Source of the DNA: a virus
Lineage: Duplodnaviria; Heunggongvirae; Uroviricota; Caudoviricetes
Virus record (IMG/VR): IMGVR_UViG_2877973648_000001
Span: 1-20,998 of that record
Length of the DNA: 20,998 nucleotides
Reading direction: 5' to 3' (one strand)
Shown here: in pieces, positions 1 through 20,261 of the stretch
Position numbering within the stretch: position 1 is the first letter of the stretch
Layout of the letters: each line of letters starts with the position of its first letter
The notes under the pieces: model-generated
What the model was told of the DNA's origin: nothing
Seen by the model: the letters and a program-made list of their open reading frames with translations, nothing else
Databases searched by the model: none
Translations under genes and position numbers: made by a program

Positions 1-174
1 ATGAATTGGATATACAAAATAATCTTTGAAATCATTGCTACGGCAATCTATATGTTCGTACTATTTCCATGTTGGATAGTACTGTGCATCTTTTTTATGT
101 TACTAACAGTATTAGCACTACCTTTGAAAATTCCAACCATAAATAAAATGGTTATCAAGTTTTTGGAACGATAA
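1..174 (+). CDS. small hydrophobic membrane peptide (57 aa); may be 5'-truncated by the window edge
   Basis: ATG at 1 to TAA at 172-174, read directly. Translation MNWIYKIIFEIIATAIYMFVLFPCWIVLCIFFMLLTVLALPLKIPTINKMVIKFLER is almost entirely hydrophobic (1-2 predicted TM helices). Below the 60-aa cutoff of the ORF track. Confidence 0.3.
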   Translation: MNWIYKIIFEIIATAIYMFVLFPCWIVLCIFFMLLTVLALPLKIPTINKMVIKFLER

Positions 175-192
175 AAAATAACATGGTATAAT
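163..192 (+). promoter_or_regulatory. candidate sigma70 promoter with extended -10 (TTGGAA, 18-bp spacer, TGgTATAAT)
   Basis: TTGGAA at 163-168 and TGG-TATAAT at 184-192, read directly; positioned upstream of the small ORF at 313-465. Confidence 0.35.
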
Positions 193-312
193 CCATATTA
201 TGGTGATCACTACCTCAACGTGATAATTATAATTCTACATCAAAAAGTAATCCCCAACATGGGGATCTTTTTGCGTTGAGAAAAAATGGAAAATGTTAAA
301 CAAAGGAATGTT

Positions 313-465
313 ATGAAAGAAAAGAAAACTATTAGTGTTGGGGTGAGATTAAGTCCTACACAAGAAGAAATACTAAAATCACTTATAGTGTGTGGTAAGG
401 CTACAACGATGAGTTCAGCCATTCAGTATCTGATACAGCAATATGGGATTTTAGATAGTAAGTAA
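313..465 (+). CDS. small ribbon-helix-helix-like DNA-binding protein (50 aa)
   Basis: ATG at 313 preceded by AAAGGAA with 4-nt spacer; stop TAA 463-465. N-terminus KKTISVGVRLSPTQEEILKSL resembles the beta-strand/helix start of RHH (CopG/Arc/MobC-like) proteins. An alternative upstream ATG at 286 gives 59 aa. Confidence 0.4.
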   Translation: MKEKKTISVGVRLSPTQEEILKSLIVCGKATTMSSAIQYLIQQYGILDSK

Positions 466-538
466 GGGTTTGGTACTTTCACTTTAGAAAGGTACTAACA
501 GTACTTCAGGATGAAGTACTTAGTTTCAAGGATGAAAT

Positions 539-1039
539 ATGGAAAAGGAAAAAAGAAATGACCTAAAGGGTCAGGAATTACCACATGTAAAACAAGCACT
601 ACGAGTATGGAATAATTTTCACTCAAGAGTACGTAATAACATCAATTACAGTACTGTTACCATCTGCGATGACTGGTATCGGTTTAGTGATTTTTATTAT
701 TGGTATGTTGAAAATGTTGTTGATGGTTGGCATTTAGATAAAGACATATTAGGAGGTAATGAGTACAGCCCAAGTAACTGCATCTTTGTACCGAGAGAAG
801 TAAATCAATTGTTCCGTAAAGTACCAACATCATTATCAACCGGTGTTGTCGTTAATCATAAGGGCTATCAAGCACAAGCAACATTTGATAAGAAAGTACA
901 TAAGTTTGGGACATACCCAACGATAGAAGAAGCTCATGCTGCTTATGTTGTTGAGCGTAAATCATATATCTATAAAATATCGCAGCAGTATAAAGCATTT
1001 CCAAAACTTAGTGCGGTACTATTACAAAAATCAAAATAA
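539..1039 (+). CDS. HNH endonuclease with C-terminal AP2-like DNA-binding domain (phage homing-endonuclease-like)
   Basis: Track ORF 166 aa. Motif GWHLDKDILGGNEYSPSNCIFVPREVN matches the HNH_3-type pattern (H-x-D...N...N); VVNHKGYQAQATFDKKVHKFGTYPTIEEAHAAYV matches the AP2 domain pattern. Confidence 0.7.
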   Translation: MEKEKRNDLKGQELPHVKQALRVWNNFHSRVRNNINYSTVTICDDWYRFSDFYYWYVENVVDGWHLDKDILGGNEYSPSNCIFVPREVNQLFRKVPTSLSTGVVVNHKGYQAQATFDKKVHKFGTYPTIEEAHAAYVVERKSYIYKISQQYKAFPKLSAVLLQKSK

Positions 1040-1104
1040 CGAAATGGCCTGAGTACTGGAAATACTACAGGCCAATATTAACATCTATCATAGGGGTATT
1101 TATT

Positions 1105-1629
1105 ATGACAAAAAAGAAAGAGCCGCATGAAATAAAGAAACGTGGACGAAAACCAAAAAAACACGATAATGCAGAATTACAAGATCATCTAAGGGGAGTA
1201 CGCCATCTCAATCAACTTACAGATGAAGCACGTAGAGTAATATCAAACTCTGTTAAAAGTTACTTTGAAAAGAACAAGAAACGTAAGACTTTCTCAAACA
1301 AGAATATGCTACTTCTGGTTACATCGACTCGATACATCACAGATGAAGCGATAAAGAACAATATCGAGTACTTTGATGCCTTTACACTCAATGAGTACGG
1401 CGATTCCTCAGTACGAGATTATAAGATGGTCACGATTGCTATATGTGAAGGCCTGAATGCGATTCTAAGTAGTGGTAAGCCGGTAAGAAGTGATACACCA
1501 GAGGGAGCACAGTACTTAACTGGTGAAGAAGCATATCAACTACGTATGGCTTTAGATGGTGGCTGTACTAAGGCAGACCTACTAAAGGTTATAGCTACAA
1601 TTTATCCCGAATTAAGACATTCTAAGTAG
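1105..1629 (+). CDS. hypothetical protein with N-terminal AT-hook-like basic motif (KKRGRKPKK)
   Basis: Track ORF 174 aa, co-directional with the upstream HNH-AP2 gene; GRKP core flanked by lysines at residues 12-19. Confidence 0.55.
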   Translation: MTKKKEPHEIKKRGRKPKKHDNAELQDHLRGVRHLNQLTDEARRVISNSVKSYFEKNKKRKTFSNKNMLLLVTSTRYITDEAIKNNIEYFDAFTLNEYGDSSVRDYKMVTIAICEGLNAILSSGKPVRSDTPEGAQYLTGEEAYQLRMALDGGCTKADLLKVIATIYPELRHSK

Positions 1630-2301
1630 TGTTTTAATAACGGTTCAAATGTCGTAATTAAGGTTAAATGTGGTTTTTATGGGGTTGATTAGTGTTGCTT
1701 GCACTAGATATAGTATCTATATGAGTTAAAACACACTGTATATGGGTTGCCCAGAATTTCGACACCATAATTAGAAATTATTAAGACCTCTTGTACTACG
1801 TCCAAATCGGTCTTTGAGTGCCTACACTCCCTGCGGTCGTATAGTCACTGAAAAACAAATTAAACCGAACCTTGCGTTTTTTCTCGCTAGTACTCGAAAA
1901 GAACTAAGGGATTTACTCGCTTTCGCTCAGACAAGTAACAGTACTGACAAAAGAAGAACTCAAAGTGATTTGGTAAGTATTCGTGAGTAACTACGTGGTC
2001 GTAAACTCCCTTGTCGGGGCGTTCGGCTGTTAAAGCCTCACATAATTACTTTCTAAGTACTGGCAAAGTAATTGATCAAATTATTAGTGAGTTGCCCACG
2101 CAGTCCCAACCGCGAACCGTGGATCGACCGAACCCAGATTGTTGCATACGATTTACATAATCGTTCCTTGCAAGTAGATATATTAATTTGAACAACAGAA
2201 GCAGTCTTAGCTTTCTATCTAAGCTGTAAGGTTGCTTATCTGATACTTGAACAATTACAGGCATTTGGAGTACTATTAGCAATACATTCTGTTTAGAGAT
2301 A

Positions 2302-3180
2302 TTGATTCATATGTACAATTCAGGCAAGGAATATGAAGAACTAGTACGGGATATCCAGCGGTCACTTATTGCAGCTGAGAATATACCAAGCCTCAATAAT
2401 ATTAACATTGAGAAGAATAAAAAGATTAAAGATCGTTCAGGTATTGAAAGGGAATTTGATATCTATTGGGAATTTGAGTTAGGGGGTAATATCTATAGAT
2501 CAGTGATAGAGTGTAAAGATTATTCAACACCAGTATCTATTGAAAAAATTGATGCATATATTGGTAAAACTTCAGACATCCCAGGTCTTAAGCTAATTTA
2601 TGCTACACGGACAGGATATCAGAGTGGTGCAAAGATAAAAGCTGAACAGCACAATATACAGTTGCTTGTTATACGTGGTCAGCAAGAGTCCGATTGGATT
2701 ACTGAAGATGGTGAGCCATTGTTAAAAACAATTCATATGAATATAATTGCACGGACATTACCAGAAATTAAAAATTTTAATGTGCGTGTTGATGGTGCAT
2801 GGTTTAACTCTCAGAGCGACTATAAAGAAGATGATTTCCAAAATATATTTAAAGGAAAGATGAACAATGAGGTCTTCATCAATGATGTTCAAAACAATGT
2901 GAAATATACTATACATGATATACCAAACAGGATTTTCAGTTTGAGTAAAGAACTGAAATATGGCCCTGGTGAATATTTTGAAAAATTCAATGATGGTTGG
3001 CTCGAGGGTTTAGATAGTAAGGTGCGATTTAAAATTACAGAATACCATTGTGATTACGTTTATCGAGAACCTATAGCTAGTACATCCATTATAGATTTTT
3101 CAGAACAAATTAAAGCTATAGTCGAGGATTTTCAGTCGGGCAAGAAAAAATGGGTTATGAATGATGGTAGTGTTAAATAG
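2302..3180 (+). CDS. Mrr-like PD-(D/E)xK restriction-endonuclease-fold protein with an uncharacterised C-terminal domain
   Basis: Track ORF 292 aa (TTG at 2302; in-frame ATG at 2311). EFDIYWEF...VIECKDY...IDAYIGK...GLKLIYATRTGYQSGA follows the D / E-x-K core and downstream layout of Mrr_cat-type nucleases. Confidence 0.6.
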   Translation: MIHMYNSGKEYEELVRDIQRSLIAAENIPSLNNINIEKNKKIKDRSGIEREFDIYWEFELGGNIYRSVIECKDYSTPVSIEKIDAYIGKTSDIPGLKLIYATRTGYQSGAKIKAEQHNIQLLVIRGQQESDWITEDGEPLLKTIHMNIIARTLPEIKNFNVRVDGAWFNSQSDYKEDDFQNIFKGKMNNEVFINDVQNNVKYTIHDIPNRIFSLSKELKYGPGEYFEKFNDGWLEGLDSKVRFKITEYHCDYVYREPIASTSIIDFSEQIKAIVEDFQSGKKKWVMNDGSVK

Positions 3181-3279
3181 TGATGGGATAAGATACTTTT
3201 AATACATAACCATAAGAGAACCAAAAGATGAGTACTTTAATGAAGCCATTGTAAATACGTATATTGAAGTATTAATTAT

Positions 3280-3302
3280 AGCGGTGAAGATTGTCCACCG
3301 CT
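3280..3302. terminator. candidate bidirectional intrinsic terminator hairpin between convergent genes
   Basis: Perfect inverted repeat AGCGGTG (3280-3286) / CACCGCT (3296-3302) with 9-nt loop, A/T-rich flanks; lies between the 3' ends of 2302-3180 (+) and 3321-4013 (-). Confidence 0.4.
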
Positions 3303-3320
3303 TGTTGAACTATGTGAACT

Positions 3321-4013
3321 CTAATTAGAGAAATGGAAAAGATTATTCATGTCCTTTTTAAGTGTTTCATGCGTGTTAATTAAACCTTTAAAAGTGTCAA
3401 CTAATACTTTTCCATAGTTCATGTTGTAATGATATCGCTCAGATATATCATTTATATCAAAATTTATTGCTTCCTTTAAAGTGCTCAGAGCCATTTGATT
3501 GCTGAAAAAATAATTTTTAAAAATGGTTGCATCCTTTGGTGATACCTTCCAAAAAGTAAGCGATTGCAACTCATTTTTTAATGAAGTTAGCTTTATTTGT
3601 AGTTGATCGATAACTTCTTTTTCTGTCCTCACTAAGTAAGCGAAGTCTTTTGGCTCAAAATCAGGATCTGTATTGTTGAGACTGCGTACATTTTCATATG
3701 TTTTTAACATTTCTAACGAAAAAAGATCGCAATTAGTCCAGAACTTAGTAACTTGATTTAATGCATTTTCCTTTATTTTAGTTTGAAACCAATTTTTAGC
3801 GTTCCATGCTGCATATAGGGCTGCCCCTGCCATAATTAGATTGGCGATAGAACTAACCCAATCACTAATAGATCCCCATTCCAATTGGCTACCTCCATGA
3901 AAAAGTACTTTAACCAACACCAATATTGCTACACATAGAAGTACGATAACTGTGGATGCAAGTATTCTATTTGTTATTTTAATATTCACATGAAGTACTC
4001 GAAACTCAACCAA
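3321..4013 (-). CDS. membrane-anchored hypothetical protein (N-terminal TM helix, helical C-terminal domain)
   Basis: Track ORF 230 aa; hydrophobic segments ILASTVIVLLCVAILVLVKVLF and IANLIMAGAALYAAW near the N-terminus; no recognisable catalytic motif. Confidence 0.5.
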   Translation of the reverse strand: MVEFRVLHVNIKITNRILASTVIVLLCVAILVLVKVLFHGGSQLEWGSISDWVSSIANLIMAGAALYAAWNAKNWFQTKIKENALNQVTKFWTNCDLFSLEMLKTYENVRSLNNTDPDFEPKDFAYLVRTEKEVIDQLQIKLTSLKNELQSLTFWKVSPKDATIFKNYFFSNQMALSTLKEAINFDINDISERYHYNMNYGKVLVDTFKGLINTHETLKKDMNNLFHFSN

Positions 4014-4216
4014 TAATGATGGATGTTAACATTTGGGAAAGTGAATCGTAAATATTAATTTTCTGTACCCATCAGTGCTACTTAAATTTAACTTAAGGTT
4101 AGTTATAATTATGGTGTTGATAATGATCACAAATTATATGAAAAAATTGCTCTCTCTCCTGAGATCCCGATAACATAAGACATTACATATCAGCATCATA
4201 CAACAAAGGATTAGAA

Positions 4217-4945
4217 ATGAACCGGAAGCAATTCATCCAGTCGCACGGAGCTACTTGCAGTAACTGGACGTGGAGTTGGTCATTTGTTAACCATGAAAAG
4301 AAGATGGTCATCTTTGGGTCATGGGATGTTGAGAGTGAACAAGAGCGGTCAGTCATTCTTCGAGAGCGTTGGGAGTACAACTCAAACAACAAAAAACAAC
4401 TGGGATACACCCAGGCACTGGAACACGTCAGGTTAGTCCATGAAGGCTACGAACTTTACACCTTCAATATGGTTTTCGCAGAACACCCGGATAACCCTGA
4501 AATTGCAGTTATCAAGGATTTTGAGCGTAAATTAAACAAGCGATATCTGCGTAAAGAAGGCGTTGTTTGGTATGCAGACTTCTTACCTAATCCATTCCCT
4601 GATGAAATTCCTTCAGGAGAGAGTTTTGTTGAAGGTGCAAAGACTCAAGTAACAGTGAACTACTACGAACGCGATCCAAAGGCCAGACAAGCCTGCATCC
4701 AACATCACGGTACTACCTGTAAATGCTGTGGTTTCGATTTTGAGAAGGTCTATGGTACACATGGCCGTGGATTCATTCATGTACATCACATCAAGCCGCT
4801 TCATACGATTGGGGAAAACTATGTGGTCAACCCCGTAACAGATATGGTCCCATTATGTCCAAATTGCCATGCAATGGTACATCGTGGGAGCAAAGTACTT
4901 TCAATTGCAGACTTGAAAGAGAAAATGACCTTTTGGAGCGAGTAA
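4217..4945 (+). CDS. HNH nuclease-domain protein with an uncharacterised N-terminal domain (candidate type IV restriction / defence nuclease)
   Basis: Track ORF 242 aa; AAAGGA 7 nt upstream of ATG. C-terminal CKCCGFDF...GFIHVHHIKPLHTIGENYVVNPVTDMVPLCPNCHAMVH is a zinc-finger HNH motif (C-x2-C ... HH ... N ... C-x2-C-H). Confidence 0.7.
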   Translation: MNRKQFIQSHGATCSNWTWSWSFVNHEKKMVIFGSWDVESEQERSVILRERWEYNSNNKKQLGYTQALEHVRLVHEGYELYTFNMVFAEHPDNPEIAVIKDFERKLNKRYLRKEGVVWYADFLPNPFPDEIPSGESFVEGAKTQVTVNYYERDPKARQACIQHHGTTCKCCGFDFEKVYGTHGRGFIHVHHIKPLHTIGENYVVNPVTDMVPLCPNCHAMVHRGSKVLSIADLKEKMTFWSE

Positions 4946-5806
4946 ATGGATTTATCACAATTGAGTAACGTCGAATTGATGCAACTGAATCAGTTGACGC
5001 TTGATGAGTTAGAACGACGAGAGGTTATCAGAACCAGAAACAATCCTATCAGTGAGTACACTGAATGGCTGGTTGCGGATAAGATGCAAATGGTACTGGC
5101 TGCACCTAGTACTAAAGGGTATGACGCTACAACGATTGATGATCGAAAAATTCAGATTAAGTCTCGTAAGAATAATTTAAAAAACAAATCATTAATTCTT
5201 GGGATTATCAGAAATTATGATCTGAACCAATTCGATGAGCTCATTGCCGTAATATATAACCATGATTTCTCAATTCGTTATGCTGTATCCATACCACATG
5301 AATTAGTGAAGGAATATGGTTTTTATAATGAGCACCAGAATGGTTACACTTTAAGAATCAGCAATTTATTACTTAACGATCCACGTGTAACAGACATCAT
5401 TGAATTTATTGATCCAGACACTGAACGTTCAAAGGAAGAGATCACGGTGAAGCCAGATTCAAACACTATCCGGGATCTACAGACAATAGGAATGCAGACA
5501 TTTATTGAGTACTATCAGTATGTTGAAAGTGGTATGAACACAACTGATCTTGTTGAAAAGATGGTAACTGACCATCCAGAATGGAAGGAAAGTACTGCAA
5601 GAACAAAGGCATCTTCAATGCGAAGAGTATTCAAGAATGGCGACAACGTTGAAGCACTAAAAATCATCTATAAGTCGAATCACTCAGCAATAACGGATGA
5701 GATTAAGAGTAAACTTATGACGCTTTGTGAACCGCTCCGGTTTTCCTGGAGAGTATTTTGCCTGAGTGATCAGGCTGCCACATCCCGGTCATTCAGCGAA
5801 GCGTAA
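4946..5806 (+). CDS. hypothetical protein translationally coupled to the HNH gene; native C-terminus replaced by IS-derived codons
   Basis: ATG at 4946 directly follows the upstream TAA (TAAATG). The IS629-like end lies at 5728, so residues after ...KLMTL are read from IS sequence. The reconstructed native gene ends ...MTLWDK (263 aa) using 9306-9314. Possible PD-(D/E)xK-like motif GYDATTIDDRKIQIKSRK. Confidence 0.55.
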   Translation: MDLSQLSNVELMQLNQLTLDELERREVIRTRNNPISEYTEWLVADKMQMVLAAPSTKGYDATTIDDRKIQIKSRKNNLKNKSLILGIIRNYDLNQFDELIAVIYNHDFSIRYAVSIPHELVKEYGFYNEHQNGYTLRISNLLLNDPRVTDIIEFIDPDTERSKEEITVKPDSNTIRDLQTIGMQTFIEYYQYVESGMNTTDLVEKMVTDHPEWKESTARTKASSMRRVFKNGDNVEALKIIYKSNHSAITDEIKSKLMTLCEPLRFSWRVFCLSDQAATSRSFSEA

Positions 5807-6242
5807 TAGGCTTTTTCTGCCTCCACTGGCGGGATATATCCGGTCCGTTCCATCAATCGGTGATTATTGTACCAGTCCACCCATTTCAGCGTAGCCAGCT
5901 CAACATCCTGTCGGGTTTTCCAGCTTTGCCTGTGGATCACCTCCGCTTTGTACAACCCGTTGATACTTTCTGCCATCGCATTGTCATATGAGTCGCCCGT
6001 GCTGCCTGTTGAAGCCAGCAGCTCCGCGTCCTGCAGCCGTTGCGTGTACGCCAGTGACACATATTGCGAACCTTTGTCGCTGTGATGGATGGTACCGCTC
6101 GGGCGTCTGGCCCACAGCGCCTGCTCCAGTGCATCCAGCACGAACGACGTTTCCATCGTGGATGAGACCCGCCAGCCCACGATAACACCGGCGAACACAT
6201 CAATGATGAAGGCCACATATGCGAACCCCTGCCAGGTGCTGA
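5770..6242 (-). CDS. IS3-family transposase OrfB, C-terminal exon (downstream of the group II intron)
   Basis: Translation ...STWQGFAYVAFIIDVFAGVIVGWRV...DSYDNAMAESINGLYKAEVIH... is the DDE catalytic/C-terminal region of IS3-family OrfB; the track ORF 5770-6216 begins at an internal GTG. Confidence 0.75.
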
Positions 6243-8512
6243 GTAGAGTAAGAGGCAGGGCGTAGTCGGACTATTTCCCTGCCTCTCCTCCCCGAACCGG
6301 ACGTGCACCTTTCAGCGCATCCGGCTCTCCATTTAAATGCTGGCGAACGCCATTGCCACTTCTGTAAAGCGCGATGTATACGTGTTTCTGGTCTCCGTCC
6401 TCAGATAGGGATTACCTTCGGGTAGCCGCCAGCGGAACAGCTTCTTGCCTTGCCCCACCAACCGGTACAGTATTTCGCCGCTGAGCTTGCCGTGATTGGT
6501 TTTACCAAATAAAACCCACGTTTTGCTCTGACCCGGTTTCGGTGATTTACACCACCACCTCATCAGGGAAGCGATACCTGTACGGTATTTGCGGGCCAGC
6601 CAGTGAGCCAGCTTCCAGAACACGACACGGTCGATATAACTGAAGACTTTGGCCTTAAAATCAACGAACTGATAGAACATGGCCCAGCCTTTCAGTTTTC
6701 GGTTGAGTTGTTCAGCCATATCGACTTTGCTTTCACTGTAGTTGCCTGATAACAGTGCTGTCAGCGATGCGGCGAAGTTTCTGGCTTTCTCCTGCGGGAT
6801 CGTTGAGACCACTCGCATCTCGCCATAACGACTGCGTTTGCGAATGATCCTGTGCCCCAGAAAGATAAAGCCGTCATTAACATGGGTGATTTTAGTCTTA
6901 TCCATGTTCAGCCTGAGTTTCAGACTGCCTTCGAGCACACCCCGACACTCCTCCCTGATGGCTTCCGCCTGTGCTTTGGTGCCTTTGACGATGAGGACAA
7001 AATCATCGGCATAGCGGCAGTACGCCACCGCGGGTTTCCACTGCCAGTTTTCTCTGACCGCCGTACTTCGGCCCCGTTGGATACTGTTATTCCAGTACCA
7101 CCGATCTTTTCTGGCTTTCCCGCTCAGGTAGCGCTCATGCAGGTATTGATCGAACTCATTCAGCATGATGTTCGATAATAGCGGCGATATAACACCGCCC
7201 TGTGGCACACCTTCACTGGCCGCCCGAAAGAGACCGACATCGATATGTCCCGCCTTGATGGTTTTCCACAGCAGAGTCATGAAACGTGCGTCACTGATCC
7301 TGCGGCGTACAGCCTTCATCAGCAGTCGATGATGTACGGTGTCGAAGTAACTGGACAGGTCGCCTTCAATCACCCAGCGTCCCCGGGTTTCACCACAGTC
7401 TGTGAGCTGTAATTTCACCGTGCGGATCGCGTGGTGGACACTGCGCTCAGGCCGGAAGCCATATGAGAGCGTATGAAAATCACTCTCCCATATCGGCTCC
7501 ATCGCCATCAGCATGGCCCGCTGAACAATACGATCCCGCAACGCGGGGATACCCAGTGGTCGCAGTTTGCCGTTGCTTTTAGGGATGTAAACCCGTCTGG
7601 CGGGCAAGGGCTGGTAGTGGCCTGAGAGTAATTCATCCCTGAGGATTTGCAGCTCAACAGCCAGTCTGGCCTGTAGCATTGTTTTGTTCACGCCATCAAC
7701 GCCGGGGGTATGGGCCCCCTTTGATGAAAGCGTGATCCGCGCCGCTTCAGCCAGCCATTCTGGTTGTGTTATCAGACGCAGCAGCCGTTGAATCCGTAGG
7801 GACGGATCGGTGACTGCCCATGTGGCAAGCTTGCGTTGCATTTCGCTGATTATCAAAGGTCTTCACCTCGTTAGGTCAGTTAATTCACGTCGCAAACACA
7901 TTCAAACTGCTTCCCTTCGCCATGTAATGGGCTTTCCCCATCGCGGACTACTACGGAAGCTCCGCCAGCCAGCGCGTCATCGGAGCCATGCCCCCTTAAC
8001 ATCCGTCGCTGACCTTCCCCGGTTTACCTGCCTGGACTCAGGCATACTGAGGAGGCTGCCCGTCGCACTCTTTATCCTTGCTTGCCGCAAGTTGGCAGAA
8101 GTCAGCAACGCAAGCGTGATAGACGCTGCTGCCCCGGTGTTTCGCATACATGTCAAAACACCTTCGACCGGCAGTGCTTACGTATCACTGCCAGTTCCTC
8201 CTGCACGGCCTGTCAGATCACGTAGGCCGTGGTGACGTTTTCAACCCACAGAGGCGGATTAACGGGTTCATGTTCTTCAGCCTTTCAGTACTTAACCTTG
8301 AGGATCATCTCGGCTTAGTGATCTCGCCTCAATCCCCGTTGTCAGCGGGTTACATCACCCTGCGGGCATGCCGCAGGTCACTGCCGCTCAGGTTCTCCAC
8401 CGTCACACCCGGTGGGATTGTTGGGTTTCTCATCGTGAGTTACCGGTTCAATATTCCAGACAGACTCGCGGTTCATTTAAGCATCCATGCCCGCCCTGAA
8501 CTCCGGGCACAC
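6243..8512 (-). mobile_element. bacterial group II intron inserted in the IS629-like orfB
   Basis: Minus-strand 5' end GTGTGCCCGGAG (GUGYG consensus) starting at 8512; domain V GAGCCGGATGCGCTGAAAGGTGCACGTCCGGTTC at 6294-6327; domain-VI-like stem and 3' end ...CTAC at 6243. Joining the flanking exons gives a continuous OrfB (...ADFTY-V-STWQGF...). Confidence 0.8.
6333..7856 (-). CDS. group II intron-encoded reverse transcriptase/maturase
   Basis: Track ORF 507 aa with RT motifs (...RPLGIPALRDRIVQ..., ...YCRYADDFVLI...) and a maturase X region; ORF ends just upstream of domain V, as is typical for an ORF within domain IV. Confidence 0.85.
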   Translation of the reverse strand: MIISEMQRKLATWAVTDPSLRIQRLLRLITQPEWLAEAARITLSSKGAHTPGVDGVNKTMLQARLAVELQILRDELLSGHYQPLPARRVYIPKSNGKLRPLGIPALRDRIVQRAMLMAMEPIWESDFHTLSYGFRPERSVHHAIRTVKLQLTDCGETRGRWVIEGDLSSYFDTVHHRLLMKAVRRRISDARFMTLLWKTIKAGHIDVGLFRAASEGVPQGGVISPLLSNIMLNEFDQYLHERYLSGKARKDRWYWNNSIQRGRSTAVRENWQWKPAVAYCRYADDFVLIVKGTKAQAEAIREECRGVLEGSLKLRLNMDKTKITHVNDGFIFLGHRIIRKRSRYGEMRVVSTIPQEKARNFAASLTALLSGNYSESKVDMAEQLNRKLKGWAMFYQFVDFKAKVFSYIDRVVFWKLAHWLARKYRTGIASLMRWWCKSPKPGQSKTWVLFGKTNHGKLSGEILYRLVGQGKKLFRWRLPEGNPYLRTETRNTYTSRFTEVAMAFASI

Positions 8513-8927
8513 CGTAGGTAAAATCGGCCACCCAAAGACTATCGGGCCGTTCAGCCACGAACTGCCGGTTCACCCGATCCTGCGGTGTTTCGGCTTTGTT
8601 GCTGCGGGTGGTTCTGACACTTTTGCCGCGTGTCACCCCACGTAGCTGCAGGGCTTTCATCAGGCGCTCAATGGTGCAGCGGGCAACGCCGACACCTTCA
8701 CGTTTTAGCTGTCGCCAGACCTTACGCACACCGTAAACGCTGTAGTTTTCTTCGTATACGCGCTGTATCTCAGGTATCAGCACGGCATCGCGTTTATCCC
8801 GACTACTGCGTCGTTCAGGACACTTCCGGCGTTGCTGATGCCAGTAGTACGTTGACGGAGCAATATCCAGCTCATGACAGACTGGCCCGACCCCGTGTTC
8901 ACCGCTCAGATTTTCCAGAAGCGGCAT
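8513..8927 (-). CDS. IS3-family transposase OrfB, N-terminal exon (interrupted by the group II intron)
   Basis: Translation MPLLENLSGEHGVGPVCHELDIAPSTYYWHQQRR...RPDSLWVADFTY; after Y (codon 8514-8516) the sequence enters the intron. The track ORF continues to 8448 reading intron sequence. Confidence 0.75.
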
Positions 8928-9268
8928 TATTTTTTCCAGTGGCGGTCGAGCTCCGCCTGGGCAAAATACGCTGAAGCCTGACGCAGAATATCATTGCTGC
9001 GGCGCAGCTCGCGGACTTCCCGCTCCAGTTCTTTCAGACGCTGGCGTTCGCTGGCAGTCAGCGCATTCTGCTCATCATCAACGGGCTCCTGCTGACGGAT
9101 CCAGATACGCAATGTCTCGGGAGTGCAGCCGATCTTAGGGGCAATGGAGCAGATAGCGGCCCATTGTGAGTTGTAGGTATTCTGGTTTTCCAGAACCATA
9201 CGAATAGCGCGTTGACGAACTTCAGGGGGAAATCGGTTATGTTTTGTCATCCTGGTTACCTCTCTCAA
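8927..9268 (-). CDS. IS3-family (IS629-like) transposase OrfA, helix-turn-helix protein
   Basis: Track ORF 113 aa: MTKHNRFPPEVRQRAIRMVLENQ...LKELEREVRELRRSNDILRQASAYFAQAELDRHWKK; stop overlaps the orfB start (ATGA). Confidence 0.85.
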   Translation of the reverse strand: MREVTRMTKHNRFPPEVRQRAIRMVLENQNTYNSQWAAICSIAPKIGCTPETLRIWIRQQEPVDDEQNALTASERQRLKELEREVRELRRSNDILRQASAYFAQAELDRHWKK

Positions 9269-9415
9269 AGAGTGTAGTCTCCAGGATTACCGGGGCGGTT
9301 CATTGGGATAAATGAACAAAGTTTTGGTTATATTTTTGATGCAAAAAGATATAATTGTAGTACTTCCACCTTTCGCATTTGGGTAGGTTTGTTTGGGCGA
9401 TTGGTGGAAGTGCTA

Positions 9416-9727
9416 TCAAAACGGTAATTCTCCCTGCCCAGAGAACCAACCATCTTCTTCATGCTGCTTATAGACGGCATTCTCAGTACTCAGATAATGC
9501 AAGCCTTCCAGTACTGAACTTAGCGGCGTTTCCAGTATGAACACGAAGCAATCACGCTCAATCGTGCCTAACCAGTATGTACCTTGCTGGTTCTGAAAGA
9601 AAACACGATCCCCATATGAAAACTCATCAAGACTGTATCCCCAATAGCAGACCTTAGCCCATTGGCCTAAATGCTCAAACTGCTGAACCCCGTGTTTGAT
9701 TGCCGGATCAAAACCATTCTTGCCCAT
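9416..9727 (-). CDS. hypothetical protein (103 aa)
   Basis: Start chosen at the internal ATG 9727, which is preceded on the minus strand by GGAGGG with a 6-nt spacer; the track ORF extends to 9805 without a ribosome-binding site. Confidence 0.5.
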   Translation of the reverse strand: MGKNGFDPAIKHGVQQFEHLGQWAKVCYWGYSLDEFSYGDRVFFQNQQGTYWLGTIERDCFVFILETPLSSVLEGLHYLSTENAVYKQHEEDGWFSGQGELPF

Positions 9728-9850
9728 GATATGCCCTCCACATGAATACTGGTTATTTATACAGTATCGCATCACATTTCGCACAGATCCAGCCGTGAAA
9801 ATCACTAACCACTAAAAATGGTAGGAAAGGTTATACCGATCGATAATGAG

Positions 9851-9865
9851 TTGACTGATAGTCAA
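9851..9865. promoter_or_regulatory. operator-like palindrome TTGACTgatAGTCAA in a divergent intergenic region
   Basis: Perfect 6-bp inverted repeat with 3-bp spacer, read directly; flanked by near-repeats ACCGATCGATAAT / ACCGATCAATTAT; lies between divergent genes 9416-9727 (-) and 9909-10418 (+). Confidence 0.25.
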
Positions 9866-9908
9866 GACCGATCAATTATCAATCAGTTATGACAACTGAG
9901 AGATCAAC

Positions 9909-10418
9909 ATGAAACTCGAACATTGGGCAGTTCCTATTACGTCTTTGGACGGTATGTTACTCGGCGTAGAGCTGGAAACCCGTGTACTGATAAACGGTTG
10001 CCGGGTACTGATGGGGGCAGGAAAGGAAAGTGAATACATTCGTCACGTGGTCTATCAGAACCAGTTAAGAATGATTCAGGGCAAAGCCGCATGGTTCAAA
10101 GAAAAGGGGGTGTTGTGCGTGCTCAGTACTGGCACAGGTACACGCTATGAAGATCTACCATTCATACGGTACATGGCTGCTGAACCGCTGCTAACGGACG
10201 GTTACGACTTAGTTCGACTAAATAGACGGTTCACTGAGGAATACATAGAGCGGTTGATCTTCCCGGTACTCATTAAGAACATCATGCAGTACTGCGACAA
10301 GGTGATCGTACAAGTCAGCAGCAACCGAAATCACAGGATTTTACGAGAGTCGGGCATATGGGCAGTACAGGGAGAGTACAGGCCAATCCGCTTTGAACAA
10401 TGCGAACAACTTCTATAG
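9909..10418 (+). CDS. hypothetical protein with EAL-domain-like N-terminal motif (short, probably degenerate)
   Basis: Track ORF 169 aa; WAVPITSLDGMLLGVELETRVL resembles the start of EAL domains (QPIvsL.g.l.GvEaL.R), but the protein is too short for a complete EAL phosphodiesterase. Confidence 0.45.
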   Translation: MKLEHWAVPITSLDGMLLGVELETRVLINGCRVLMGAGKESEYIRHVVYQNQLRMIQGKAAWFKEKGVLCVLSTGTGTRYEDLPFIRYMAAEPLLTDGYDLVRLNRRFTEEYIERLIFPVLIKNIMQYCDKVIVQVSSNRNHRILRESGIWAVQGEYRPIRFEQCEQLL

Positions 10419-10428
10419 GGATATAACA

Positions 10429-10701
10429 ATGAAAATACTAATCGTCATGTTGGTAGTACTGCTCACAGGCTGCGGCACCGTACATCATTCATTCATGGAT
10501 AAAGCCTTGGTCGGTAACGTTGATAACAAAGCTATAATAGTACTGTTTGATACAGGTACACGTAACGGGGTGAAGTACTACCGTCCTCAGTTCCAGAGTG
10601 ATTGTGGCCGCACCTACAATCCGATCTATCAGGTGGACAATGGCAGTACTACATGCCATATACGAGAGGAAAGAATTAAAAAAATGCATCAATATAGATA
10701 A
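10429..10701 (+). CDS. small lipoprotein (signal peptide with lipobox LTGC)
   Basis: ATG at 10429 preceded by AGGGA with 7-nt spacer; MKILIVMLVVLLTGCGTV... carries a type II signal peptide. Starts 10 nt after the stop of 9909-10418, so probably co-transcribed. Confidence 0.55.
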   Translation: MKILIVMLVVLLTGCGTVHHSFMDKALVGNVDNKAIIVLFDTGTRNGVKYYRPQFQSDCGRTYNPIYQVDNGSTTCHIREERIKKMHQYR

Positions 10702-10723
10702 TAAACAAAAATCAAAGAGATAG

Positions 10724-10787
10724 AATTATTAAATTATTAAATTATTAAATTATTAAATTATTAAATTATTAAATTATTAAATTATTA
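10724..10787. repeat. perfect tandem repeat (AATTATTA) x 8
   Basis: Eight uninterrupted 8-bp units counted directly, between the 3' ends of convergent genes. Confidence 0.9.
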
Positions 10788-10829
10788 AGTGTATGTGGCA
10801 TGATGAAAAATTAAATAATATATAATACC

Positions 10830-10859
10830 CTCATGCTGTTATTGATAAAACAGCATGAG
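10830..10859. terminator. candidate intrinsic terminator hairpin (11-bp perfect stem)
   Basis: CTCATGCTGTT (10830-10840) / AACAGCATGAG (10849-10859) with 8-nt loop and A/T-rich flanks; immediately downstream of the minus-strand gene ending at 10870. Confidence 0.5.
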
Positions 10860-10869
10860 AATATATATT

Positions 10870-12024
10870 TCAACGTAGCATGGCTAATGTTCTGGAAATT
10901 CTTATTATATCCTTCTCAATATCATCTAAAACAGGAGTTGAGTTTCTGCTTCGCTCTGCAATTTCTTGCAAAATATATCTATTTAAATGGTTGTTAACAT
11001 TTTTAGGGTCAAGGTTTTCTGGTGTGGGAACAACACAGCACTGCCAATAAAAAATCTCATCTTCAAAATGATTTAGCCATTTAGAATGATATTTTTCTTT
11101 CGATTTTTTCTTGTTAAGGACATAAATGCTAGCCGCAGCTACCACATCCGCAATTTGTATACCATGCGTGACTTTAGAATCAGAAAGAATCATTGGCTCA
11201 GATAGCTTAAATGTGATCGGGATTTTTTTATCATGAAAAGTCTCGAACACAATCTCATCATTGCCTATCATCTCATTGAATGAGTCCTGATGAGTAATTA
11301 ATGGTTTTGAGCTGTCGCATATAGCTCTCAATGTACCAAACTTACTACTCATATCGCACAGGAGATTATAAAGAGAAGTCGTTGTCAAATCTAATAACCA
11401 CTTATCAATCCCAGTACCCTCAAGGCCTTCATATTCTTCTTCAATTATAGAGATGTTATTCTTGGCGAAATCATGAATGTCCATCATAATTTCAGAATTT
11501 TTAGAACCAACAACTGGTTCGATAAAACTATTAACCAATATTTTACCTCGTGAAAAATCTTCAAATCGCGAATGTAATAGTTCTGAATATTCATCCTTAG
11601 CTATTAAAGAAAAATACATTATATTTGAGATGAATAGGTGAAATTTAAGGTTGTAAAAAATTGAGCTTTTAGCTGCTAATACTGGCTCAAAAATATATTC
11701 GAAGAATTTTCCTGAGAGGGCATATTTTTTTTCGTTTACAACCACACGCATACGACCACGGAAATGATTAAGTATTTCATCTACGGCTGGTTGAAATCTC
11801 TTGCTATTTACGAGAGTGCTACCTTTTAGCTCTTCGGCTGCGATCGAGTACTTGTTTATTATATAATCAACAAACTGTTTACTTTCCTCATCATCAGTCA
11901 CGACTGCTGCGTAACTAAAAAAAGGCTGATCTTTTGAAAGTAAGTTATTACCAGTGAATCCTGATTCATCGAAATATACATTCTTTACCAATTTGGTCAT
12001 TCCTTTATGAGCTACAATGTGCAT
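10870..12024 (-). CDS. DUF3800-like protein (conserved DESG motif near N-terminus, Q-x-AD motif near C-terminus)
   Basis: Track ORF 384 aa; ...VYFDESGFTGNN... and ...HGIQIADVVAAASIYV... match my recollection of DUF3800 signature motifs. True start uncertain (ATG 12024, ATG 12000 or TTG 11991). Confidence 0.55.
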   Translation of the reverse strand: MHIVAHKGMTKLVKNVYFDESGFTGNNLLSKDQPFFSYAAVVTDDEESKQFVDYIINKYSIAAEELKGSTLVNSKRFQPAVDEILNHFRGRMRVVVNEKKYALSGKFFEYIFEPVLAAKSSIFYNLKFHLFISNIMYFSLIAKDEYSELLHSRFEDFSRGKILVNSFIEPVVGSKNSEIMMDIHDFAKNNISIIEEEYEGLEGTGIDKWLLDLTTTSLYNLLCDMSSKFGTLRAICDSSKPLITHQDSFNEMIGNDEIVFETFHDKKIPITFKLSEPMILSDSKVTHGIQIADVVAAASIYVLNKKKSKEKYHSKWLNHFEDEIFYWQCCVVPTPENLDPKNVNNHLNRYILQEIAERSRNSTPVLDDIEKDIIRISRTLAMLR

Positions 12025-12203
12025 GTGCTATTAATATAACATTGTAATAATGCTAATGTAAAATAGAATGTAAGTATTTTTAAGCAAGCTAATTAAGTTA
12101 AATTACTAATTAAGGTACTCCGGCAGCCCAGCTTAGAACGCGAGTTTTCGGCACCGGATTCTTTAAGTTATGTGTGAAGTTTAGATAGCTTCCCGCACCG
12201 CAC

Positions 12204-12767
12204 TTAGCAAAGTACAACACCTATTTCATTTAACGCACAATCGCAATGACGGTTTGTCGGACATTCGCATAATTTGAATACTGCATAAGATCCTTTAAGG
12301 GTATCGGTTACATACTTGTCCATTTCTTCAACTACAGATGATGAGCAATATAAATGAAAACCAACACAGAAAGAATTTCGCATCGGATACTTACATTCTT
12401 GTATAGAGTTGAGTTTCAAATGGTCTGCTTGCAATCCTCTTTTTAAGGCAGATGAACGCTTAGTACATTTCAGCTCAATAAAGATATAGTCTTCAAAAAG
12501 GGTATCTTTTTCTCTCATTATTATATCGATTTTTGAGAGCTTGCTTGCAGGGAAATTATTAGGGGCAAGAAAAGCTGTAACTTCACGTTTAACTTCATAT
12601 TTTCTTTTTTTGTTAAGGAAGTGCTCAAATTCAATTTGTAGCCATTTTTCCCAATCATTAGTTTCATTACTGACGAAGGAATACAGACGCCTCTTTATAT
12701 CTTCATTCTTTAGGAAGCTATTCAGTAACTTTACCAGCAAAGAAAAATCATTGTTGCGGTCTGACAT
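12204..12767 (-). CDS. hypothetical PD-(D/E)xK-like nuclease-fold protein with C-terminal cysteine cluster
   Basis: Track ORF 187 aa; KIDIIMREKDTLFEDYIFIELKCTK fits D ... E-x-K spacing; C-terminal CVGFHLYC...CECPTNRHCDC is Cys-rich (possible metal site). Same strand as, and upstream of, the DUF3800-like gene. Confidence 0.5.
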   Translation of the reverse strand: MSDRNNDFSLLVKLLNSFLKNEDIKRRLYSFVSNETNDWEKWLQIEFEHFLNKKRKYEVKREVTAFLAPNNFPASKLSKIDIIMREKDTLFEDYIFIELKCTKRSSALKRGLQADHLKLNSIQECKYPMRNSFCVGFHLYCSSSVVEEMDKYVTDTLKGSYAVFKLCECPTNRHCDCALNEIGVVLC

Positions 12768-12781
12768 AGTGATCTCAATAA

Positions 12782-14027
<1,246 letters not shown>

Positions 14028-14900
14028 TCTTGACCCTCCATCTCCGAACAGCTTTTGTATCTTAAGTTAACGATGTCCGCTGCCGCCGGTATTCCCTCGG
14101 GGAGTGATATCCCAGCGCGCTGTGCGGGTGGTTTTCATTGTAATGCGTGAACGCTACTGCAAGGTTTCGCAGTGCTGTTCTCACATCCGGTTTTGGCATG
14201 AACGCGATATAGTCTTCTTTCATCGTTTTCACGAACCGTTCGGCCATGCCATTACTCTGCGGGCTGCTCACCGCTGTTGTGCAGGGCTCCAGATTCAGCT
14301 CTCTCGCGAACCTCCGCGTTTCATACGCGGTATACGCTGAACCGTTATCCGTCAGCCACTGCACCGCTGTGTCGGGCAACCTGTCGCCGAAGCGCTTTTC
14401 CACCGACCTCAGCATCACATCCTGCACGGTCGAACTGTCATAGCCTCCCGTGCTTGCTGCCCAGTCTATGGCCTCACGGTCGCAGCAGTCCAGCGCGAAC
14501 GTTACCCGCAGTTTTTCGCCGTTGTCGCAGCCGAACTCGAAGCCATCTGAACACCAGCGCATATCGCTTTCTGCCACCGCTATCTTGCCCTTATGTTCAA
14601 GCTTCGGTCGCTCTGGTTTGTGATGCAACAACAACAGGTTATGCTCGCTCATTATCCTGTAAAGCCGTTTGGCATTCACAGGTGGCTGTCCCTCTGTGCG
14701 ACGTTGCTTGCGCAGGATGCCCCACACGCGTCGATAACCATAACTCGGCATATCGCTGATAATGTTGAGGATAGCCGACAGTATTTCTGCGTCTGCTTCT
14801 TCATTACGCCGGTTACAGCGCCTGTCCTGCCAGTCGGCAGAACGGTTAATCCGCAGTGACAGTTGCGCACGCGACACGCCCATGGTCCGGCTGACCATGG

Positions 14901-16871
<1,971 letters not shown>

Positions 16872-17039
16872 CTAGATATACTTCAATTGGAATCATTACG
16901 TGAAGATGAATTTAACCTACATAAAATACATGAAAGTACTTTAGGCATAACAATATCTGTAGACCAGCTGACCTGCTCCCCGTTGATTAGTACACCCCGA
17001 TGTTAGTAATGTCTTCATAAGCCACATGAGGACATCCCC

Positions 17040-17303
17040 ATGAAGAAGCGTTTTTCCGACGAACAGATCATCAGTATTCTCCGCGAAGCCGAAGCTGGGG
17101 TACCCGCCCGTGAACTCTGCCGCAAGCATGCCATTTCCGATGCCACGTTTTACACCTGGCGTAAGAAGTATGGCGGTATGGAGGTGCCTGAAGTTAAGCG
17201 CCTGAAGTCGCTTGAGGAAGAGAACGCCAGACTCAAGAAGCTGCTTGCCGAAGCCATGCTGGATAAAGAGGCGCTTCAGGTGGCTCTTGGGCGAAAGTAC
17301 TGA
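17040..17303 (+). CDS. IS407-group transposase OrfA
   Basis: [49 protein letters not shown]...[15 protein letters not shown]... closely resembles IS407 OrfA as I recall it. Confidence 0.8.
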
Positions 17304-17326
17304 CGACAGACCAGAAGCGGGAAGCC

Positions 17327-18160
17327 GTGATGTTGATGTGTGATGCGACCGGTCTGTCGCAACGTCGTGCCTGCAGGCTTACAGGTTTATCCCTGTCGAC
17401 CTGCCGCTATGAGGCTCACCGTCCGGCTGCTGATGCGCATTTATCAGGGCGCATCACTGAGCTGGCACTGGAGCGCAGGCGTTTTGGCTACCGTCGTATT
17501 TGGCAGTTGCTGCGCCGTGAAGGGCTTCATGTTAATCATAAGCGCGTGTACCGGCTTTATCACCTCAGTGGCCTGGGCGTAAAACGCAGAAGACGTCGTA
17601 AAGGGCTGGCAACAGAACGTCTGCCGCTGCTCCGTCCGGCGGCGCCCAATCTGACCTGGTCGATGGATTTCGTCATGGACGCACTTTCCACCGGTCGCAG
17701 GATCAAGTGTCTTACCTGCGTCGATGATTTCACAAAGGAATGCCTGACGGTCACTGTTGCCTTTGGGATTTCAGGCGTTCAGGTCACGCGTATTCTGGAC
17801 AGCATTGCACTGTTTCGAGGCTATCCGGCGACGATAAGAACTGACCAGGGGCCGGAGTTCACTTGCCGTGCACTGGATCAATGGGCCTTTGAGCATGGTG
17901 TTGAGTTGCGCTTAATCCAGCCGGGCAAGCCAACGCAGAACGGATTTATTGAGAGCTTTAACGGACGATTTCGCGATGAATGTTTGAATGAGCACTGGTT
18001 CAGCGATATCGTTCATGCCAGGAAAATTATTAATGACTGGCGGCAGGATTATAACGAATGCCGCCCGCACTCCACGCTGAATTATCAGACACCGTCTGAA
18101 TTTGCAGCGGGCTGGAGAAAGGGTCATTCTGAGAATGAAGATTCCGACGTTACTAACTGA
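17327..18160 (+). CDS. IS407-group transposase OrfB (DDE integrase)
   Basis: Track ORF 277 aa with ...[10 protein letters not shown]...[56 protein letters not shown]... (rve-type catalytic core). Confidence 0.8.
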
Positions 18161-18414
18161 GTGTTGTATCTAATCGTGGGGGCAGGTCATTCTGTACACT
18201 GTATTCCGCGACAATACAAAAGATACTGATGGACTACTTACACGTGTTTCAGAACTGGAAACTAAACAAGCAGTACAGGAAAGTAGTATGGTGCGTATTG
18301 AAGCTGATCAGAATAAGATGCGTGATGCTTTAACTAAACTTGAAAACCAGATCCATGATCTGGATGTGAAAATTGAAAAAATCATTACCATTCTTGAACA
18401 GAAACAATAAGAAG

Positions 18415-18450
18415 AAAGGCGATAGTACATAATGCTATCGCCTTTTTGTT
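18415..18450. terminator. candidate bidirectional intrinsic terminator
   Basis: AAAGGCGATAG (18415-18425) / CTATCGCCTTT (18435-18445) with 9-nt loop, followed by TTGTT; lies between the terminase tail stop (18410, +) and the lysozyme stop (18449, -). Confidence 0.5.
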
Positions 18451-18898
18451 ATTTGTTGGTTAGTACTGCAATCATTGCATCAACACGATTAGGTGTTTGT
18501 TTATACCATAATGAATCTTTAGCCTGTCTGATGGCTTCCGGGTAATCTTTTGCTTTAAGGGCTACTAACATCTTTTTGAATTTCTGTACCCCGCCTAAAC
18601 CTAACTGGAACATCATTATCACAAGAAAATCTTTCCACTCGTCAGGTAGCCAGATATTGAGTGTTTCGACGTTATGCACTGCAATTAGTATATCTTGGTC
18701 TAGTAGGCTTTCCGCTTGCTCAATAGTAATACCATCTGGATACTTTTCACCAACATGTAGTAAATGACCGTAGCCGATGGTTTCAAATTCTAGTGAATCT
18801 TTGTATGTCCAAAATTTGTTATCGTGAAAGTACTTCAATTTTGTTTGATAAGCGATAGTACCTTCATATTCTTTTAATCTGTCTTTTAGTTTACTCAT
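18449..18898 (-). CDS. phage lysozyme, T4-type (glycoside hydrolase family 24 endolysin)
   Basis: Track ORF 149 aa; ...YKDSLEFETIGYGHLL...DQDILIAVHN...MMFQLGLGGVQKFKKMLVALKAKDYPEAIRQAKDSLWYKQTPNRV... parallels T4 lysozyme (YKDTEGYYTIGIGHLL...NMVFQMGETGVAGF...SRWYNQTPNRA). Confidence 0.8.
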   Translation of the reverse strand: MSKLKDRLKEYEGTIAYQTKLKYFHDNKFWTYKDSLEFETIGYGHLLHVGEKYPDGITIEQAESLLDQDILIAVHNVETLNIWLPDEWKDFLVIMMFQLGLGGVQKFKKMLVALKAKDYPEAIRQAKDSLWYKQTPNRVDAMIAVLTNK

Positions 18899-18938
18899 TA
18901 ATAAATACCTATAATAAATCTATATAGGGATATTTATT

Positions 18939-19388: not shown

Positions 19389-19392
19389 ATAT

Positions 19393-19953: not shown

Positions 19954-20261
19954 ATTTTGATGAACATTATGGTGAACTAACCAGTGAGATTAAACTCGAT
20001 GGTAATACACCAGAGGCTAATAGTATGCCAATTCATAAATGCTTTCTTGGTAATAAGTTCAAGAAGGTACTAAAGAGTAAACAGATTAATATCGAGCATT
20101 TTATGAATGTTTGCTATGAGAAAAAACAAAATATAACGGACGGTTCAGTACTTACATGGTCACTACAAGGTGACCAGATGGATGTGTACGTAATCGAACA
20201 TAAAAAACTATTCGTTAAGGGAAAACACTTTTGGGTGTATTGCGTGGGGATCATTGAATGA
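19950..20261 (+). CDS. hypothetical protein
   Basis: Track ORF 103 aa; start overlaps the upstream stop (ATGA), suggesting translational coupling. Confidence 0.45.
   Translation: MNFDEHYGELTSEIKLDGNTPEANSMPIHKCFLGNKFKKVLKSKQINIEHFMNVCYEKKQNITDGSVLTWSLQGDQMDVYVIEHKKLFVKGKHFWVYCVGIIE

Follow-up and report, generated by a model that had tools for sequence, protein, structure and literature searches.

Four copies of the pentamer GTACT lie on the plus strand between two genes of a prophage-like element, at 473-477, 492-496, 501-505 and 516-520 of the window (the whole 20,998-nt stretch of DNA analysed herein), and the question arises whether this cluster serves as an operator for a DNA-binding protein, acts after transcription as an RNA, or has no function of its own. 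The positions given in the initial annotation, GGTACT at 472 and 491 and AGTACT at 500 and 515, were all confirmed, the last motif ending 18 nt upstream of the ATG at 539. The features of the region are as follows.

163-192, plus strand: predicted sigma-70 promoter (TTGGAA, 18-nt spacer, TG-TATAAT; 10 of 12 matches, extended -10)
250-272, plus strand: leader hairpin of terminator-like form (ATCCCCAACATGGGGAT followed by a T run), 3' of the promoter and 5' of the small gene
313-465, plus strand: gene for a 50-aa RHH-like protein (ORF; annotated in NZ_CP123310.1; family alignment)
466-538, plus strand: intercistronic spacer holding the cluster, 73 nt from the small-gene stop (465) to the ATG at 539, with a conserved core at 466-522 (57 nt)
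470-498, plus strand: hairpin A, its arms being GTACT copies 1 (GGTACT 472-477) and 2 (GGTACT 491-496)
500-520, plus strand: hairpin B, AGTACTTCA-GGA-TGAAGTACT, a perfect 9-bp stem with copies 3 (500-505) and 4 (515-520) as arms
523-538, plus strand: Shine-Dalgarno (SD) region, TTTCAAGGATGAAAT, with GGA 530-532 in a weak third hairpin
539-1039, plus strand: gene encoding a 166-aa protein (HNH-like beta-beta-alpha region; AP2-like domain at the C-terminus)

The prophage-like island and the genes flanking the cluster

Over its first 5.7 kb the window is identical to the chromosome of E. coli AREA_C483 (NZ_CP123310.1), in which an island of about 25 kb (34-38% G+C) between yeaG and mipA contains the window. 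From window 10701-10870 onward the gene coordinates are 8 bp off, and therefore the window does not correspond to NZ_CP123310.1 base for base over its whole length. The island starts with a large serine recombinase gene, carries lambda-type terminase genes, a lysozyme gene and a conserved methyltransferase gene, is interrupted by IS3-family elements, IS5 and a group II intron, and is a degraded prophage-like element. The insertions in the window occupy 5770-9300, 14062-15296 and 15700-18200 (IS3-family elements, IS5 and ISSen4), one IS3-family element carrying the group II intron with an ltrA-type reverse transcriptase, and the large terminase gene is split into 13269-14027 and 15277-15699, so that the prophage is defective. 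The native non-IS DNA was taken as 1-5766, 9300-14061, 15297-15700 and 18200-20998 (13.7 kb).

Related elements, often more intact and located at the same or other sites, were found in E. coli, Klebsiella, Raoultella, Citrobacter and Cedecea/Dryocola, and further in Buttiauxella, Pluralibacter, Enterobacter, Scandinavium and Pseudescherichia; individual lineages are cited below by L numbers. A search of cultured phages and plasmids gave no nucleotide match, the TerL identity being 34% at best. An HNH endonuclease gene paired with a DUF6998 gene at window 4217-5806 is present, as the pair alone, in 10 other complete E. coli genomes (about 83% identity) and is probably a mobile two-gene cassette. 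The 680 bp at 1630-2300 hold no convincing ORF and five (A)GTACT sites (1793, 1890, 1941, 2057 and 2270). The record L003 (PQ671644.1, Escherichia phage DCP80), which lacks GTAC enrichment, combines a lambda-GpA-type terminase/structural block at 1-25 kb with T4-like genes (motA, ndd and, twice, rIIA), and its assembly may be chimeric.

The small gene and the 166-aa gene are probably expressed together, as one operon, from the predicted promoter at 163-192. In the relatives, too, the RHH gene is preceded by a TATAAT promoter and then a hairpin; CCCC...GGGG leader hairpins are present in most of those examined (L018, L014, L021, L022 and L023) and are weaker or different in others, the combination with the TATAAT promoter being clear in L018, L021, L022 and L023. 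Several of these relatives also carry a conserved TGATAAATAAA box upstream. The conserved leader at 150-272 could be an attenuator or a small RNA.

The 50-aa protein has no match in Pfam. Its AF2 model (pLDDT 85) consists of an N-terminal extended strand and two helices and gave weak Foldseek matches to TCP, MazE, ParD, NikR and Arc. The RHH-like designation in the initial annotation is reasonable; almost all lineages have the gene conserved, and an Arg in the predicted strand is invariant. The AP2 naming of the downstream gene is likewise reasonable: in the AF2 model of the 166-aa protein (pLDDT 91) strands 103-126 and helix 129-150 form the three-stranded sheet packed on a helix that characterises the AP2 fold, and the top Foldseek matches of this C-terminal domain were the AP2 domains of Arabidopsis TEM1 and WRINKLED1 (probability 0.99-1.0, E only 0.14). 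No Pfam match was obtained for this protein even at E 5, and for its beta-beta-alpha element at 65-91 (HLDKD...N...N) neither a Pfam HNH nor a structural HNH match was detected. The genes syntenic to it in L020, L023 and L024 encode NUMOD4 plus HNH_3.

Density of the cluster and enrichment of GTAC through the element

The density of the four copies had been taken as a sign of function, an argument that the counts do not sustain. The cluster density alone is not beyond chance, since (A)GTAC(T) is enriched about tenfold throughout the degraded prophage: GTACT occurs 152 times on the two strands of the window, against 30 +/- 6 expected, and AGTACT 50 times, against 6.4 (whole-window shuffles). 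Four sites within about 43-44 bp make the tightest run in the window, and 22% of random placements of the 93 GTACT/AGTAC sites in 13.7 kb yield such a run. Over 198 kb from 11 related elements, runs of four in 50 bp are rarer than random (8 versus 18.8 +/- 5.1 expected), and comparable runs lie within the coding DNA of relatives (L021 13266; L023 7103 and 17763; L025 3645). Judged by the refuting condition set in the initial annotation, similar clusters in coding stretches, the argument from density alone fails. The search for similar arrays 5' of other genes in the window, proposed as a check in the initial annotation, found none. No preferred AGTACT spacing stood out except codon periodicity, and flank symmetry of AGTACT was as expected (12 observed, 13.2 expected).

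One reading of these figures is that the cluster has no local function and represents a chance aggregation of an element-wide motif, which would serve the whole genome, for instance as a site that an element-encoded factor modifies or binds. The scan statistic (P of about 0.22), the similar motif density in coding and non-coding DNA (3.15 and 4.57 per kb, respectively) and the runs within relatives' coding DNA agree with this reading, whereas the depletion of tight clusters otherwise in the family does not.

The enrichment itself is a property of the whole family. The native 13.7 kb holds 47 AGTACT and 111 GTAC; in every lineage (window, L002, L014, L017, L018 and L020-L025) GTAC has an observed/expected ratio of 1.9-2.6 and AGTACT is 5-10-fold enriched, GTAC occurring once per about 112 bp in the family, and the IS elements and E. 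coli flanks show no enrichment. Within coding sequences 35 AGTACT were counted against 7.3 predicted by synonymous-codon shuffling, with all three codon frames used (9/15/11). Between lineages GTAC is the best-conserved of 40 tetramers, 72% of its sites being kept (about 30-75% for tetramers overall; four pairwise alignments), which suggests that something reads GTAC at many places; judged from these comparisons, GTAC sites are under selection across the whole element. Adjacent GTAC sites are over-represented at 11-40 bp and triplets are depleted, and 24 adjacent pairs, against 6.8 expected, carry at least 5 extra complementary flank bases. Long perfect inverted repeats built on two AGTACT copies occur at L025 2551, L020 15722 (= L021 15457 and L023 15750), L022 1767, L025 1838 and window 1040-1075; examples are AAAGGCAGTACTGAA-CT-TTCAGTACTGCCTTT and ACGGGAAGTACTT...AAGTACTTCCCGT, and these repeats are probably terminators.

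A second feature of these elements is the absence of GCGC, of which not one copy was observed in any related element against about 16 expected per 14 kb; L020-L025 contain GCGC-free stretches of more than 21 kb, and CTAG and GGAC/GTCC are also low in the native DNA of the window and in the related elements. Strong restriction avoidance, or a signature of self against non-self, would look like this. Just right of the window (L001 41040-41750) lies the gene for a 236-aa class I SAM methyltransferase with the motifs CAGIGRL and NPPF, which is conserved and accompanies the family; the protein itself has no Pfam match, some of its 1380 homologues across Enterobacteriaceae match PF05175 (MTS), and its NPPF motif is of the amino-methyltransferase type, not the m5C type. 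It is a candidate modifier of the iterated motif. Repair of the very-short-patch type has been proposed as the origin of HIP1 and Dcm sites; such repair-driven creation was ruled out here, since GTAT and ATAC, each one step away from GTAC, are not depleted (observed/expected 0.8-1.0) and the methyltransferase carries NPPF. The AP2 protein was also ruled out as a general GTAC reader, since five of six TerL-defined relatives lack its gene and are equally GTAC-rich.

A broader reading is conceivable, to which we give rather little credence and in which (A)GTAC(T) would be a highly iterated palindrome selected family-wide in serine-recombinase prophages of Enterobacteriaceae and read by an element-encoded factor, for which the conserved RHH-like protein and the NPPF methyltransferase are the candidates. 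The motif would then be a genome-wide self mark or structural signal, and the cluster at 472-520 the place where this system was co-opted for regulating a gene. Our literature search for over-representation of AGTACT or GTAC in phages returned nothing relevant, and no description was found of the combination of GTAC/AGTACT enrichment, purifying selection and GCGC absence in such elements. In L023, the divergent intergenic region at 1420-1600, beside a leftward 221-aa gene, contains 9 GTAC in 180 bp, direct repeats GGTACTTTAGGAAT(A/T)A alternating with GAAGTACTTATA; this array, for which no counterpart was found in the E. coli element (L001 19200-19998), looks far more operator- or iteron-like than the cluster in the window.

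Pairing between the motif copies and its conservation

Folded as RNA, the region 460-545 forms two adjacent hairpins with a single unpaired base between them. The minimum free energy is -20.9 kcal/mol (z -2.9); hairpin A, with 11 pairs, a 1-nt bulge and the loop ACTTTA, gives -8.5 kcal/mol (z -2.2) and hairpin B alone -9.5 kcal/mol (z -4.9), z-scores that overstate the significance of the fold because the stems consist of a palindrome abundant for other reasons. We propose that the GTACT copies are the base-paired arms of two adjacent mRNA stem-loops, copies 1 and 2 in hairpin A and copies 3 and 4 in hairpin B, the stems being built from the element's abundant self-complementary word. Since GUAC is self-complementary and the commonest palindrome in the element, two nearby copies would seed a stem easily. 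The sense strand folds better than the antisense strand by 0.4-2.8 kcal/mol in all variants, and from this slight preference together with the operon layout we infer that the region is transcribed on the folding strand. In an Rfam search no family reached its gathering score, the best being freshwater-2 with 22.5 bits (against 49.9), and CsrB, with 11.3 bits (against 71), was insignificant (E 0.74).

An alignment of seven distinct spacer sequences (E. coli, K. pneumoniae, Klebsiella sp., Raoultella, K. michiganensis and an IMG/VR contig) showed variation in only 9 of the 57 core columns. The core is 88-96% identical between genera, compared with 70-82% at the third-codon positions of the 166-aa gene and 42-82% at those of the RHH gene; because the core is more conserved than these positions of the flanking genes, the cluster is regarded as a selected cis-element. 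Eight of the nine variable columns lie in a loop, bulge or linker or preserve pairing, helix A being 100% and helix B 98% paired over the seven variants. In Klebsiella sp., Raoultella, K. michiganensis and Cedecea, copy 1 reads GATACT and copy 2 AGTATT, the facing G and C of the stem having switched jointly to A and T so that pairing is kept and GTACT is lost. The arms in C. koseri, GTTAC and GTAAC, carry a matched 1-nt insertion per side that abolishes GTAC and keeps the stem. At two stem positions of hairpin A that face a U, either A or G is found (U-A to U.G), and a single G.U pair does not vary among the seven variants. Eight of the nine pairs of hairpin B are invariant in the close variants, and its loop is GGG in L110. 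These observations, pairing-preserving changes and variation mostly in unpaired positions, are those expected of a structured cis-regulatory RNA, with the limit that the close variants contain few independent substitutions, the G-C to A-U change having probably arisen only once.

A covariance model was built from the close variants and used to locate syntenic spacers; it recovered those of C. koseri (L151), of L014, in which the downstream protein is only 55% identical, and weakly of Dryocola (L017). In the resulting alignment of distant relatives, which leans towards the model structure because it was fitted to it, 91.8% of the cells were paired compared with 83.2% in shuffles, the pairing fell to 36-47% once partners were slid by 1-3 columns, and 11 pairs had changed in both partners, with 4.5 expected (0 of 500 shuffles), including five of the nine pairs of hairpin B. 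A MAFFT alignment of the distant variants was left out of the pair counts because it is not structure-aware. A DNA pattern scan of IMG/VR gave 119 matches, mostly chance, with two true relatives, L080 and L110. Altogether, the comparative evidence for pairing, drawn from aligned sequences, gives good but not conclusive support for a structured RNA, and we consider it likely that the cluster is an RNA structural element. For the reading without local function, conservation of the core beyond synonymous sites, compensatory changes that preserve pairing, and the recurrence of a GGA-loop hairpin in lineages with unrelated stems, described below, are all difficult to accommodate, and we hold that reading to be very improbable.

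The initial annotation had proposed a non-random binding array. A selected cis-element is supported by the core conservation, and four equivalent GTACT sites on DNA, as in an operator, are not supported. As a rival explanation at the DNA level, dimers of the RHH-like, AP2-domain or AT-hook protein would bind the palindromic (A)GTAC(T) and control transcription into the nuclease-like gene. RHH dimers (Arc, MetJ, CopG, omega) usually recognise short palindromic or tandemly repeated sites with a two-fold symmetric beta-ribbon, and this explanation gains from the RHH-like gene lying directly upstream and being conserved in nearly every lineage, from the rank of GTAC as the best-conserved tetramer, and from the resemblance of the GGTACTTTAGGAAT repeats in the L023 intergenic array to copy 1. 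As GTAC is selected across the whole element, a DNA-level reader could also act at the cluster. However, five lineages have other sequences in place of two of the four motifs and yet keep the RHH strand KTISVGVRL identical; the site sequence is thus lost where the DNA-reading residues are conserved. Furthermore, the replacements are complementary between the arms, and the G.U-compatible changes and the invariant G.U fit RNA pairing, not a symmetric operator. The sites are not located at a promoter: no sigma-70 promoter was predicted within 466-538 on either strand, and the predicted promoter of the RHH gene (163-192) has no GTACT within 80 bp. The AGTACT centres of hairpin B are 15 bp apart and hence on opposite helix faces, no similar array precedes any other gene in the window, and the AP2 and AT-hook genes are each missing from most of the equally GTAC-rich relatives. 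On this balance the DNA operator is an unlikely explanation, and for the RHH protein it is a weaker one than the RNA element. TrpR and SlmA sites contain GTACT or AGTACT; these host regulators were ruled out since the spacing is N9 instead of N8, with no CTAG and no GTGAG...CTCAC flanks.

The GGA loop, its possible reader and comparison with known systems

If the cluster is an RNA element, the next question is what reads it. The apical loop of hairpin B holds GGA at 509-511, within CAGGATG, upstream of the SD sequence, and a second GGA overlaps the SD at 530-532, 21 nt downstream. The loop region is nearly duplicated at the SD (AGGATGAAGTA at 508-518, AGGATGAAATA at 529-539), the two GGA contexts, UUCAGGAUGAAGUA and UUCAAGGAUGAAAUA, forming a direct repeat with a spacing of 21 nt. 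In the window, L017, L021, L020 and L023, the hairpin closest to the ribosome-binding site (RBS) has GGA at its apex despite unrelated stems. The RBS-proximal hairpins (5' arm, loop, 3' arm) are as follows.

Window: UUCA-GGA-UGAA
L017: UACA-GGA-UGUA
L021: UUAC-AGGAC-GUAA
L020: UCAA-CGGAU-UUGA
L023: GUAC-AUGGA-GUAC
L014: AGUACUAC-AAGGA-AUGUUAGUACU
C. koseri: GUACUA-ACACGGAUGA-UAGUAC

The GGA-loop pattern, recognised post hoc, is present under a strict test in five of seven lineages and in looser form in two more, L014 and C. koseri, where GGA stands within larger or interrupted loops; in comparison, a hairpin of 4 bp or more whose loop includes GGA is found in only 1.4% of random 48-nt windows taken from these elements. 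L025 has ACAGGGAUGU at the SD instead. The spacing between the loop GGA and the SD GGA is 19-24 nt in the relatives, which vary in the gene after the small gene as well as in stem sequence.

This arrangement points to CsrA as a candidate reader. According to an account of CsrA in PMC7652899, features of its targets are CAGGA(U/A/C)G repeats in hairpin loops, and the SELEX consensus is RUACARGGAUGU; at glgC a CsrA dimer bridges a hairpin-loop site to the SD so that the ribosome is blocked. By analogy, selection at the present locus would preserve the pairing plus the GGA in the loop of hairpin B (CAGGAUG), 21 nt from the SD GGA (CAAGGAUG), and host CsrA, or another reader of GGA loops, would bind both GGA sites and block ribosome entry, one half of the CsrA dimer holding the hairpin-loop GGA and the other half being bridged to the SD. 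Several observations count against this account: hairpin A has no GGA and a conserved loop, CACTTTAG; hairpin B presents a 3-nt loop on a stable 9-bp stem; the Rfam match to CsrB is insignificant; and CAGGAHG is not enriched in the window (8 versus 6 expected). The role of CsrA as the reader is accordingly put forward as a tentative proposal, somewhat more doubtful than probable. As to the whole account, a conserved two-hairpin post-transcriptional brake on a nuclease-like gene, probably of the CsrA type, our confidence is evenly balanced.

Hairpin B together with the U-rich tail that follows it may also attenuate read-through. In a stricter form, independent of CsrA, the pair would be an intercistronic attenuator, a weak intrinsic terminator limiting read-through from the RHH gene to the nuclease gene. 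Downstream of the 9-bp stem, 3 of whose pairs are G-C, come UUAGUUUC in the window and UUAUUUUC in L002 and L110, the tail has 4-6 U in 8 across the variants, and L020 carries at the same place a GC-rich hairpin followed by UUUAUUUU. However, the stem is AU-rich and reaches only -9.5 kcal/mol, the terminator scan made no call on hairpin B, the hairpin lacks a U tract in L021 and L023, and attenuation leaves the conserved GGA loop and hairpin A unexplained. We therefore judge a pure attenuator to be quite improbable.

If the proposed brake is confirmed, this would be another prophage-like island in which a nuclease-like gene, potentially toxic, is made subject to the global post-transcriptional regulator of the host, and an abundant self-complementary motif would have supplied ready-made stems for a regulatory RNA. 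For motif-based annotation the locus gives a caution, in that palindromic repeats beside a small DNA-binding gene resemble an operator and the comparative data indicate RNA pairing. The larger question is the background of the cluster, namely the GTAC/AGTACT enrichment, the purifying selection and the GCGC absence in these elements.

For that background the nearest parallel is HIP1 (GCGATCGC) of cyanobacteria, a palindrome enriched several-fold in coding and non-coding DNA, the carrier of which also encodes a methyltransferase. The likeness concerns the element-wide motif only, a short palindrome enriched in coding and non-coding DNA with a methyltransferase in the same unit; unlike HIP1, the motif is a different one and marks a mobile element, not the host genome, the methyltransferase is of the NPPF type, and GTAT and ATAC are not depleted. 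RHH proteins bind arrays of 4-8-bp repeats, and the window resembles the operators of P22 Arc and Mnt, the MetJ metboxes and the omega heptads in that a small RHH-like gene lies beside short palindromic repeats. It differs from them in that its array overlaps no predicted promoter, the sequence of half the motifs is dispensable, and the changes in the arms are complementary. In the P22 immI region the arc-ant intercistronic region is where the downstream gene is controlled post-transcriptionally by the sar antisense RNA; the small RHH gene followed by a short structured intercistronic region is common to both, whereas the window has no predicted antisense promoter and no sequence similarity to immI. 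RBS-proximal hairpins of the T4 I-TevI type limit the expression of phage homing endonucleases, and here too an HNH-type gene is preceded by RNA structure near the RBS, although the SD of the window is in a loop, not sequestered in a stem, and no internal late promoter was found.

The dual-site CsrA leader of the E. coli glgC type shares with the window an apical-loop GGA just upstream of the SD and a second GGA overlapping the SD. The bridging range of CsrA, reportedly described by Mercante et al. 2009, is said to include 21 nt. The predicted stem in the window is long and stable with a 3-nt loop, whereas short stems and hexaloops prevailed among the SELEX ligands of CsrA described in PMC7652899. 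In its context, CAGGAUG, the loop matches the CsrB repeat, CAGGA(U/A/C)G, as given in the same source. The putative target, unlike those of the CsrA leaders, is a gene of a prophage-like element, and for a CsrA target on a mobile element the account of ColE7 cel in PMC2896534 provides a precedent.
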